This document shows, in pieces, positions 4,883-6,985 of a stretch of 64,000 nt of DNA (positions are counted from its first letter, which is position 1; every line of letters starts with the position of its first letter). The stretch lies in IMG/VR virus record IMGVR_UViG_3300028888_000053, positions 148,278 to 212,277 of that record. One strand, written 5' to 3'. A program made the position numbers and the translations under genes. The DNA comes from a virus. Lineage: Duplodnaviria > Caudoviricetes. The notes below the pieces were generated by a model. It saw only the letters and a list, made by a program, of their open reading frames with translations. It was not told the origin of the DNA and did not search any database.

Positions 4883-4954
4883 GCTCCAATAATTAAACGG
4901 ATATAACATGAATCCTCTAAGTTTCTATTTCGGGTTCGATTCCTGGGTAGGGCA
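4883..4954 (+). pseudogene. Degenerate tRNA-Arg-like sequence
   Basis: D-arm (A)TTAAACGGATATAAC and T-loop TTCGATT like Arg tRNAs; mismatches in acceptor, D and anticodon stems; loop CCTCTAA lacks U33. Confidence 0.6.
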
Positions 4955-5103
4955 CTATTAACATTTTTAATATGGGATTATTTGGAAATGTAATTCGAGA
5001 AGTTAGAGATACAGTCAAAGATTCTTTAGAAGAATGTGGCTGTAAATCTGTAATATCAGAAGTCAAAGATGTTTTTAAAGCATTAATTGGCAAATAAAGT
5101 GTA

Positions 5104-5666
5104 GATTCCGTAGCTCAGTTGGTAGAGCACAGCACTTTAAACTAAAAGAAGAGTGCATAGGCGAGAAATCCCTATGTAGAATCTCCTAAATTCGGTGGAA
5201 ATCCTTAGCCTACTAGATACAATACTGTTATGGGATGGCTACAGTACATTAAACAATAATGTGTAAGGACTATACCGAGCGAAAATAGTATCTCAGATAA
5301 GTCTAATTAACTTATATCGTAAGAACTGAGCAGGCGTTAAAAGTAGAGCAAATCAGATATGTCTACATACTATAATCGTGTAGAGGCCAAACGGGAGATA
5401 TCTAAGTTGGAATTGTATTCCTCAATGGTAATGAGGTATCTAGCAATCGTACTAGGTAGGTGTTCAAATCACCAATACTCTTGCAAGAATTCCAATAAGA
5501 TAAAGAGATGGTCCAGATCACAACAGACACAAGTCTTTAGGCAACCTCTCTAAGAGCAGCATAAGACTATAGAGGTGATAGTGCAAGAATTCTAAAGTGT
5601 TTGGCTATGGTAACATAGTGTGATAGGTTAATGCTGGGGTCACGAGTTCGAATCTCGTCGGAATCA
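5104..5666 (+). tRNA. tRNA-Lys(UUU), split by a group I intron (exon 1 5104-5137, exon 2 5628-5666)
   Basis: Acceptor GATTCCG/CGGAATC, anticodon stem CAGCA/TGCTG, joined loop CTT|TTAA gives TTT, T-arm ACGAG-TTCGAAT-CTCGT. Confidence 0.92.
5138..5627 (+). mobile_element. Group I intron without endonuclease ORF in tRNA-Lys(UUU), after U34
   Basis: Guide GAGT pairs with exon ACTT (U.G at splice site); P4 TTCGGT/ACCGAG; P3 ATCTCC/GGAGAT; P7 GGCCA/TGGTC; terminal G 5627. Confidence 0.88.
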
Positions 5667-5693
5667 CTATTAACAATTTTTAATATAATTTTA

Positions 5694-6628: not shown

Positions 6629-6963
6629 GCCTAGGTGATGAAAAGGTAAACATTCCAGACTTGCATGTAACTAATTTAATATCAGTTACTTAGAGTGCAT
6701 TTAATCGAAAGGTTTAATGTAGAATCTCGCTAACAAACAGAAACCTTGAATATGGTGACATATTCTTTGGCGATGGCTCACTAAATGGATATTATATCCT
6801 AAATGGCGTAGAGACTATATACGAGACACCTAAACGATAACGTATGGTGATGAAATAGTCCAGACTACAACATCTCAAGTTAGATGGCTTATTTAAAAGT
6901 AAGAGTAGTAAGAAAATCTGGTGGAACGTAGGTTCCTTGGGGGTTCGAGTCCCCTCCTGGGCA
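6629..6963 (+). tRNA. tRNA-Leu(UAA), split by a group I intron (exon 1 6629-6662, exon 2 6913-6963)
   Basis: Acceptor GCCTAGG/CCTGGGC + A73, anticodon stem CCAGA/TCTGG, loop CTT|AAAA gives TAA, long variable arm GGAAC..GTTCC, T-loop TTCGAGT. Confidence 0.92.
6663..6912 (+). mobile_element. Compact (250 nt) group I intron in tRNA-Leu(UAA), after U34
   Basis: GTAGAGACTATACG...ATAGTCCAGACTACAACAT...GAGTAGTAAG shared with the Arg intron; P4 looks degenerate. Confidence 0.85.
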
Positions 6964-6985
6964 CTATCTAATAAATACAAAGTAA

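Follow-up and report, generated by a model that had tools for sequence, protein, structure and literature searches.

The tRNA introns of Lak megaphages were called enigmatic by those who reported them, and for one of these introns an encoded tRNA was predicted (Devoto et al. 2019, PMC6784885). The insert in the tRNA-Tyr gene of Lak genome A1 is 93 nt long and was left unclassified by the authors (Table S6, PMC6784885). The locus described here lies in a stretch of 64,000 nucleotides (the window), which is the last 64 kb of the 212,277-bp IMG/VR virus record IMGVR_UViG_3300028888_000053, rated complete by CheckV. Within a tRNA-Lys(UUU) gene of the window, a predicted group I intron carries a tRNA-like cloverleaf at the end of its P8 arm. 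The locus shares with the Lak phages a tRNA anticodon loop that is interrupted by an insert holding a tRNA-like fold. The 93-nt Lak insert is, we assume, too short for a group I ribozyme, and group I introns in phage tRNA genes have, to our knowledge, barely been described. In the literature searched, no group I intron was found to be described as having a tRNA-like module in its P8. A preliminary description of this DNA knew, more broadly, of no description of the arrangement; taken as a claim that none exists, this is too strong in view of the Lak inserts (Devoto et al. 2019, PMC6784885) and of a second such module in a related phage intron, L002, described below.

The element extends the periphery of a group I intron in a tRNA gene and is built as a tRNA-shaped module. 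We lean, with no great confidence, towards reading it as an exchangeable, tRNA-derived structural cap at the distal end of the P8 arm. A tRNA-mimic function of the tip, be it as a decoy, a docking site or a processing signal, is a less likely alternative.

Structure of the cloverleaf

The cloverleaf (5415-5478) sits on an 8-bp outer helix, the P8 helix (5407-5414/5488-5495), on the plus strand, as do all features of this gene. It consists of a 5-bp closing, acceptor-like stem (5415-5419/5474-5478), followed by a D-like arm (5420-5436) with a 4-bp stem and a 9-nt loop that contains G5427 and G5428. The middle arm at the anticodon position (5437-5458) comprises 7 bp, including one G.U pair, and an 8-nt loop. 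The T-like arm (5459-5473) comprises a 4-bp stem and the loop UUCAAAU (5463-5469), which is closed by the pair G5462-C5470. Every stem, loop and position named in the preliminary description was recovered from the sequence. Its account of the four-way junction holds for the helices, and leaves out a 9-nt bulge (5479-5487) beside them.

Folding of positions 5407-5495 (89 nt) with ViennaRNA yields the outer helix and three hairpins, with a minimum free energy (MFE) of -21.9 kcal/mol and a z-score of -2.7; four of 200 shuffled sequences were equally stable. The 64-nt core (5415-5478) forms a closed four-way junction in the centroid structure, and the three hairpins are kept in both the MFE and the centroid structure of the entire 490-nt intron. 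Furthermore, we used a cloverleaf descriptor that asked for a stem of at least 5 bp, a D arm containing GG, a T arm containing UUCRANY, and an arm of 5-7 bp between the two. Applied to the two strands of the 212-kb genome, this generous descriptor matched only three real tRNAs and the present cloverleaf, and forty Markov-1 simulated genomes gave 0.025 matches per genome, a significance that is somewhat overstated as the descriptor was composed after the cloverleaf had been seen. Judged by these models, the fold of 5415-5478 is real and not a product of chance.

The resemblance to a tRNA is partial. The arms follow the order acceptor, D, anticodon, T around a four-way junction, and the elbow residues are present, with GG in the D loop and a T loop of the form UUCRANY whose closing pair is equivalent to G53-C61. 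The preliminary description had taken the GG D-loop and the TTCRAAT T-loop as the signature of a tRNA elbow; these residues are in place and the four-way junction folds. Its broader claim of tRNA likeness stands for the elbow loops and the arm order, and falls short in the connectors, the stem lengths, the middle arm, and the score against the tRNA model. All connectors have zero length, so that the cloverleaf is without positions 8/9, position 26, and a variable loop. Where a tRNA has 7 bp in the acceptor stem and 5 bp in the T stem, the cloverleaf has 5 bp and 4 bp, and the middle arm with its 7 bp and 8-nt loop departs from the 7-nt anticodon loop with U33. The Rfam tRNA model RF00005 gives 11.5 bits on the cloverleaf (E = 6.4 in a search of 101 nt), below the threshold of 29 bits. 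ARAGORN calls no tRNA on the cloverleaf, and RF02553 (YrlA) has no match in 5400-5500 at E values up to 10. The cloverleaf cannot act as a decoding tRNA, and it is no tRNA gene. The earlier suggestion of a decoy for tRNA-targeting defences is unlikely to apply to nucleases that cut anticodon loops, because the middle arm, which resembles no anticodon arm, presents no target loop.

Modular P8 arms in the intron family

Homologous introns, recovered by conserved core patterns, form a large family in uncultured phages. They were found on more than 100 contigs, many of which exceed 100 kb, and in other tRNA genes. The placement of the cloverleaf within P8 of the tRNA-Lys intron, as had been proposed, is borne out by the Rfam group I alignment, in which its flanks align as P8, and by a receptor common to the family. 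The 5' half of this tetraloop receptor lies at the base of P8 (5401-5406; family consensus CCUAAG, window variant UCUAAG), and the 3' half follows the outer helix (5496-5500; family consensus UAUGG, window variant UAAGA). The window receptor is a compensated variant of the canonical 11-nt GAAA-tetraloop receptor (CCUAAG/UAUGG). By analogy, the GAAA loop of P2 presumably docks into the P8 receptor. The identity of the arm as P8 is fixed because this loop and receptor match the pairing known from Azoarcus-type IC3 introns.

The layout of the arm is fixed throughout the family and comprises the 11-nt receptor, the 8-bp helix, a bulge of 8-10 nt in the 3' strand, and a tip with its own closing stem. 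Compensated changes occur in the 8-bp helix across the family, with further ones in L002. We extracted 72 distinct tips in addition to those of the window and L002, representing about 74 related phage tRNA introns. The tips are hypervariable, ranging from 34 to ~190 nt at one site. A closing stem is common to nearly all of them; the interiors are unrelated and form single hairpins, three-way junctions or four-way junctions. A T arm is found in only two tip types, that of the window and that of L002. Neither an open reading frame (ORF) nor a complete tRNA was found as P8 cargo in any family tip examined. As the same site holds unrelated tips in ~74 relatives, the cloverleaf is unnecessary for the ribozyme and is no family-wide feature; on the strength of this comparison, it is not required for catalysis. 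The family presents a ribozyme periphery that evolves by cassette exchange, with the docking base fixed and the tip swapped among dozens of folds.

Smaller motifs recur among the tips. A hairpin with the loop UAUGAAAU and compensated stem changes is found in the tips of L163, L141 and L229 (and L176), and is possibly a T-loop-type motif. Loops of the type CGGAAAAC, as well as A-rich loops or linkers, recur among otherwise unrelated tips.

Copies of the window-type tip

An IMG/VR search for a T loop that precedes the bulge by 9 nt located the window-type tip in only two further contexts, namely in L003 (intron L003a) and in L222. Further scans of IMG/VR for T arms adjoining the bulge gave nothing new, and the middle-arm pattern occurred in only two records of the JGI metagenomes, both identical to L003. 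A looser gapped pattern returned 53 loci and was discarded, all new ones being chance matches in coding DNA. The L003a intron interrupts a tRNA-Ser-like gene of a 335-kb phage.

The three copies of the tip are 90-95% identical and differ in eight columns, four in loops and four in stems. In the closing stem, a G-C pair of the window is replaced by A-U in L003 and L222, and the outer P8 helix shows one further G-C/A-U double change between the window and these two. The remaining stem changes are wobbles in L222, from U-A to U.G in the D arm and from G-C to G.U in the T arm. Across the three copies, 98.8% of cells are paired, and none of the two double-sided and two wobble changes disrupts the fold. 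The stem of the middle arm is invariant, and its loop has one substitution in L222. The equivalents of GG, U54, C56, and A58 as well as the G-C closing pair are likewise invariant, while other loop positions vary; the sole T-loop change is A/G at the equivalent of purine 57. This pattern fits a maintained elbow and is, with three related sequences, not statistically significant. In the comparison of homologues that the preliminary description proposed, pairing and elbow are thus preserved in the three copies, the covariation is not significant, and the ~74 relatives mostly carry unrelated tips.

The window and L003a share a block comprising P7, P3, P8 and the tip that is ~93-95% identical, whereas their P5, P6, and P9 extensions are unrelated and their host tRNAs differ. 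L003b, a second intron of the same phage as L003a, has a P9 more like that of the window and a different tip. The shared block amid unrelated extensions, together with the swapped tip of L003b, indicates that tips are passed from one intron to another as cassettes, presumably through recombination in the conserved sequences that flank them in P8.

In L222 (L222:1285-1915, minus strand; contig IMGVR_UViG_3300012007_000011), the helix, tip, and bulge directly follow an L003b-type P6-tip module. This arrangement occupies a 640-nt spacer between an intact tRNA-His and an intron-less tRNA-Ser, and ordinary base pairs replace the tetraloop receptor. An intact ribozyme was considered and rejected for L222, which has no recognisable P3/P7, no Rfam group I match, and similarity only in the two modules. 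The spacer folds no better than shuffled sequences (z = -0.14). L222 may represent a recombinant or decaying remnant, or else a free RNA that keeps the module.

A self-complementary bulge beside the tip

Between the closing stem and the outer helix, the 3' strand of the arm carries the 9-nt bulge (5479-5487), of which positions 5480-5487 form the palindrome CUUGCAAG. A palindromic bulge of 8-10 nt is present in every family member, and its changes always keep the self-complementarity. The common form is CUUGCAAG; the variants, at least six others in all, include CUAGCUAG, CUUCGAAG, CCUGCAGG, and CUCGCGAG. Two of the variants are 10-mers with a self-complementary dinucleotide at their centre, and one pairs with itself only by way of G.U. 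Among 37 introns, pairing in the self-complementary register extends to 100% of cells, with changes on both sides at three of the four pairs, a result that 0 of 500 shuffles reach. Slid registers of the same alignment attain at most 65% pairing.

The two central bases of the bulge are adjacent and covary, and cannot pair in cis. A pseudoknot was considered and rejected, as an intramolecular partner was sought in each intron and no copy was found at a consistent place. Since the central bases covary and there is no conserved partner in cis, pairing between two RNA molecules is the simplest explanation, and the bulge is probably an intermolecular (dimer) contact, for which its sequence makes it a candidate. 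Self-duplex energies range from -4 to -15 kcal/mol, and cofolding two P8 arms brings a gain of 13 kcal/mol. In L200 and L198, which have two introns each, the two copies bear different palindromes, and such differences would keep the dimers homotypic. No natural dimeric group I intron was found in the literature searched, and we know of no natural dimerisation contact in a group I intron. If the bulge pairs in trans, it would be the first such contact known to us.

A second tRNA-derived tip and tRNA look-alikes

The tip of L002 (L002:8036-8102, minus strand; contig IMGVR_UViG_3300032007_000035) matches the Rfam tRNA model over its full length with 43 bits, the gathering score being 29. Its D arm, T arm, and variable loop are normal, and its anticodon arm is shortened to 4 bp with a tetraloop. 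A 12-bp closing stem encloses it at the same P8 position as the window cloverleaf. By its sequence, the L002 tip is clearly a tRNA-derived module that is independent of the window type. Provided that the window tip has a similar ancestry, new tips would have come from tRNA-like material at least twice.

Stand-alone tRNA look-alikes were noted in the tRNA arrays of related phages. Six of them (L175:3970-4039, and on the minus strand L198:8269-8331, L213:739-802, L221:10170-10231, L188:13005-13066, and L245:3538-3598) have normal acceptor, D, and T arms and an anticodon arm of 3-6 bp with a 3-4-nt loop. None of the six is called by ARAGORN. The look-alikes of L175 and L198 are homologues of each other and show compensated changes in the arm at the anticodon position; that of L175 scores 31 bits against the Rfam tRNA model. 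A weak match to the Rfam YrlA model (L175:4204-4311; 31.9 bits, E = 5e-5, gathering score 69) lies ~170 nt downstream of the L175 look-alike, just before a tRNA-Pro gene.

Origin and role of the tip

If the cloverleaf is an exchangeable structural cap, the P8 arm would be a modular assembly of a receptor that docks the P2 GAAA loop, an 8-bp spacer helix, a self-complementary bulge, and an exchangeable tip. The tip would have descended from a tRNA or tRNA-like gene in the tRNA array of the phage and would have moved between introns as a cassette through recombination at the conserved P8 flanks. It may have been retained since the elbow of D loop and T loop provides a compact, self-folding, and nuclease-resistant end for a long protruding helix; a contact within the elbow and a role that is structural only are, like the tRNA ancestry of this tip, what we infer. 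The cap reading is the most economical because the ribozyme does without the fold and tRNA-like material abounds near these introns. Several points weigh against it. A generic cap would not need tRNA-specific loop residues, yet these are invariant in all three copies. Covariation within the tip is powerless with three such close copies, 58 of 500 shuffles doing as well. Conservation of the tip between the window and L003a equals that of the adjoining catalytic core, and in L222 the module of helix, tip, and bulge persists without a recognisable intron around it. A search for a donor tRNA found only matches of T-arm length and no donor. Moreover, the L002 tip and the stand-alone look-alikes may mean that the tRNA shape itself is selected.

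Several of these observations are what would be expected of a selected tRNA mimic, with the elbow-bearing tip serving as a handle for a tRNA-binding factor. Such a tip might recruit RNase P/Z, whose processing or destruction of the excised intron would make splicing irreversible, or T-arm chaperone enzymes such as TruB or TrmA, or it might bind, uncut, a host tRNA-targeting defence nuclease. Elbow residues that stay invariant as other loop positions vary, tip conservation equal to that of the catalytic core, and the module kept outside an intron in L222 speak for selection on the shape. So do the independent tRNA-derived tip at the same site in L002, the anticodon-less look-alikes and the weak YrlA-like match in related phage tRNA arrays, and the precedent of the Lak megaphages. 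We nevertheless hold a mimic to be unlikely. No more than 2 of ~74 tip types resemble a tRNA, which makes the intron family independent of mimicry, and the Rfam tRNA score is a mere 11.5 bits. The stack of acceptor and T stems has 9 bp compared to 12 in a tRNA and comes without connectors, 3' end or CCA, and a middle arm unlike any anticodon arm leaves loop-cutting nucleases without a target. The hypervariability and tolerance of the P8 tip site would also suit a neutral passenger, that is, a tRNA-like fragment that recently entered a tolerant loop and is drifting there, its conservation reflecting recent recombination among few phages. The occurrence in three contexts only, at 90-95% identity and without statistically significant covariation, agrees with this, as do the L222 surroundings, which look like a decaying mosaic (z = -0.14, without P7/P3). 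However, all four stem substitutions keep pairing, including the double change in the closing stem, the equivalents of G18/G19, U54, C56, and A58 are untouched by the eight variable columns, and the fold is markedly stabler than shuffled sequences; drift is, in our judgement, rather unlikely.

The bulge and the tip could also act together, the P8 arm being a display device in which a homodimer paired through the bulge presents, at its interface, uncleavable tRNA mimics to RNase P/Z or a defence protein. We regard this as improbable. If true, the group I intron would be a natural dimer with a further job besides splicing, in which engagement of RNase P/Z would amount to intron disposal and engagement of a host tRNA-targeting defence protein to a competitive decoy. 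It is very improbable that the tip is a nested gene, whose product would be a small cargo RNA (tRNA or tRNA-like) that is cut from the intron and acts alone. The near-complete tRNA body at the same place in L002 and the Lak phage intron predicted to encode a tRNA would suit such a gene, but the window tip has no ARAGORN call and an 8-nt loop on a 7-bp stem at the anticodon position. Its 5-bp acceptor-like stem runs straight into the P8 helix on the 5' side, a discriminator and CCA context are absent, and the P8 tips of the family hold no full tRNA or ORF cargo. The structural cap is thus the reading we retain, at the modest confidence given above.

The host tRNA-Lys gene and its intron

Exon 1 of the tRNA-Lys(UUU) gene (5104-5137), as read from the sequence, comprises the 5' strand of the acceptor stem, the D arm, the 5' strand of the anticodon stem, and C32, U33, and U34. 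Exon 2 (5628-5666) comprises U35, U36, A37, and A38, the 3' strand of the anticodon stem, the T arm, the 3' strand of the acceptor stem, and the discriminator A; CCA is not encoded at its end (5666). When joined, the exons give a canonical 74-nt tRNA-Lys(ttt) in ARAGORN. In the unjoined sequence (5100-5670), ARAGORN finds no tRNA and Rfam, at gathering level, no intron. The 490-nt, IC3-like group I intron (5138-5627) lies between anticodon positions 34 and 35 and is without an ORF. It matches Rfam model RF00028 over the full model length with 29.4 bits (E = 4e-5), which is below the gathering score of 50, and at the gathering threshold there is no group I call in the window or in the whole genome. 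A blastn search with the whole gene against 50,697 GenBank phages gave no match.

The helices were placed from the sequence, the Rfam group I alignment, and the family comparison. P1 has a wobble pair, U5137.G5151, at the 5' splice site, and the intron ends in the terminal G5627. The P2 hairpin (5157-5164/5169-5175), a strongly conserved block in the family, has 8 bp with a bulged C5162 and the GAAA tetraloop (5165-5168). It is followed by P3 (5181-5186/5394-5399), P4 (5191-5196/5274-5279), P5 (5202-5207/5264-5269), and P6 (5285-5291/5367-5373). P7 (5385-5389/5509-5513) was located by the Rfam alignment, with J7/3 between its 5' strand and the 3' strand of P3 (5394-5399). P7 covaries, with four sequence types across the family and a 3' strand that matches in each of them. 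A conserved hairpin of the P9 region (5605-5618) has 5 bp and a GUAA tetraloop; its exact pattern recovered 89 phage loci. Together, these features identify 5138-5627, by prediction, as an IC3-like group I intron of the tRNA anticodon-loop type.

In the sibling tRNA-Arg and tRNA-Leu introns of the window, a short, simple hairpin seems, by eye, to lie where P8 is expected. The long tip therefore seems dispensable for such introns. Besides tRNA-Lys, two tRNA genes of the window (~551-1245 and ~6630-6965) seem, by eye, to be interrupted by group I introns that belong to another subfamily and are without the long P8 arm, a short hairpin apparently taking its place.

Upstream of the tRNA-Lys gene, positions 4883-4954 hold a degenerate tRNA-like gene, with an Rfam tRNA score of 22.7 bits (below the cut-off) and no ARAGORN call. 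Its anticodon region is ambiguous and can be read as UCU with C33 or as CUA in a 6-nt loop. A nearly identical AT-rich sequence of 20 nt follows both this gene (4955-4975) and the tRNA-Lys gene (5667-5688); it may serve the tRNA array as a common processing signal, terminator or promoter.

Comparison with known systems

The tRNA-like part makes up approximately the whole of the Lak insert, whereas here it is one peripheral tip of a full 490-nt intron. The locus accordingly falls outside a Lak type defined by an insert of ~70-95 nt that equals the tRNA-like fold and has no ribozyme. As a ribozyme, the intron is closest in kind to the IC3 introns of tRNA genes. It shares with the cyanobacterial and plastid tRNA-Leu(UAA) introns the insertion between positions 34 and 35. 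With the IC3 introns of tRNA-Leu(UAA) and of Azoarcus tRNA-Ile it has in common the U.G pair at the 5' splice site, the terminal G, and the absence of an ORF, and also the P2 GAAA tetraloop with a receptor in P8, as in the Azoarcus type. These introns are ~200-250 nt long, in contrast to the 490 nt of the intron described here, which has large lineage-specific extensions of P5, P6, P8, and P9. Beyond the receptor, its P8 goes on to a helix, the palindromic bulge, and a tip that is hypervariable. Furthermore, the intron family is encoded by large uncultured phages, and the present member reaches 29.4 of the 50 bits that Rfam requires.

In engineered group I introns, peripheral helices tolerate grafted self-folding modules, such as tRNA and U1A scaffolds, as well as self-complementary contacts while the core keeps its fold, and kissing loops have been used to form oligomers for cryo-EM. 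Those are laboratory designs, whereas here the modules are natural and the candidate palindromic contact is natural and covarying. The archaeal pre-tRNA-Trp intron, which is removed by protein enzymes, carries a box C/D guide RNA. The likeness lies in a structured RNA inside a tRNA intron; the archaeal cargo has a demonstrated guide function.

YrlA (RF02553) resembles the P8 arm in that a long helix ends in a multi-branch module with D and T arms of the tRNA type, and it is likewise phage-borne and non-decoding. In the Rfam model, YrlA has the permuted order of T arm, acceptor-like hairpin, and D arm, in addition to a stem that binds Ro/Rsr. The window element, in contrast, is ordered D, middle, T, and is part of an intron and no free RNA. 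Should its tRNA shape prove to be selected, these introns would join the Y RNAs, the viral tRNA-like structures, and the Lak inserts as carriers of tRNA mimics.

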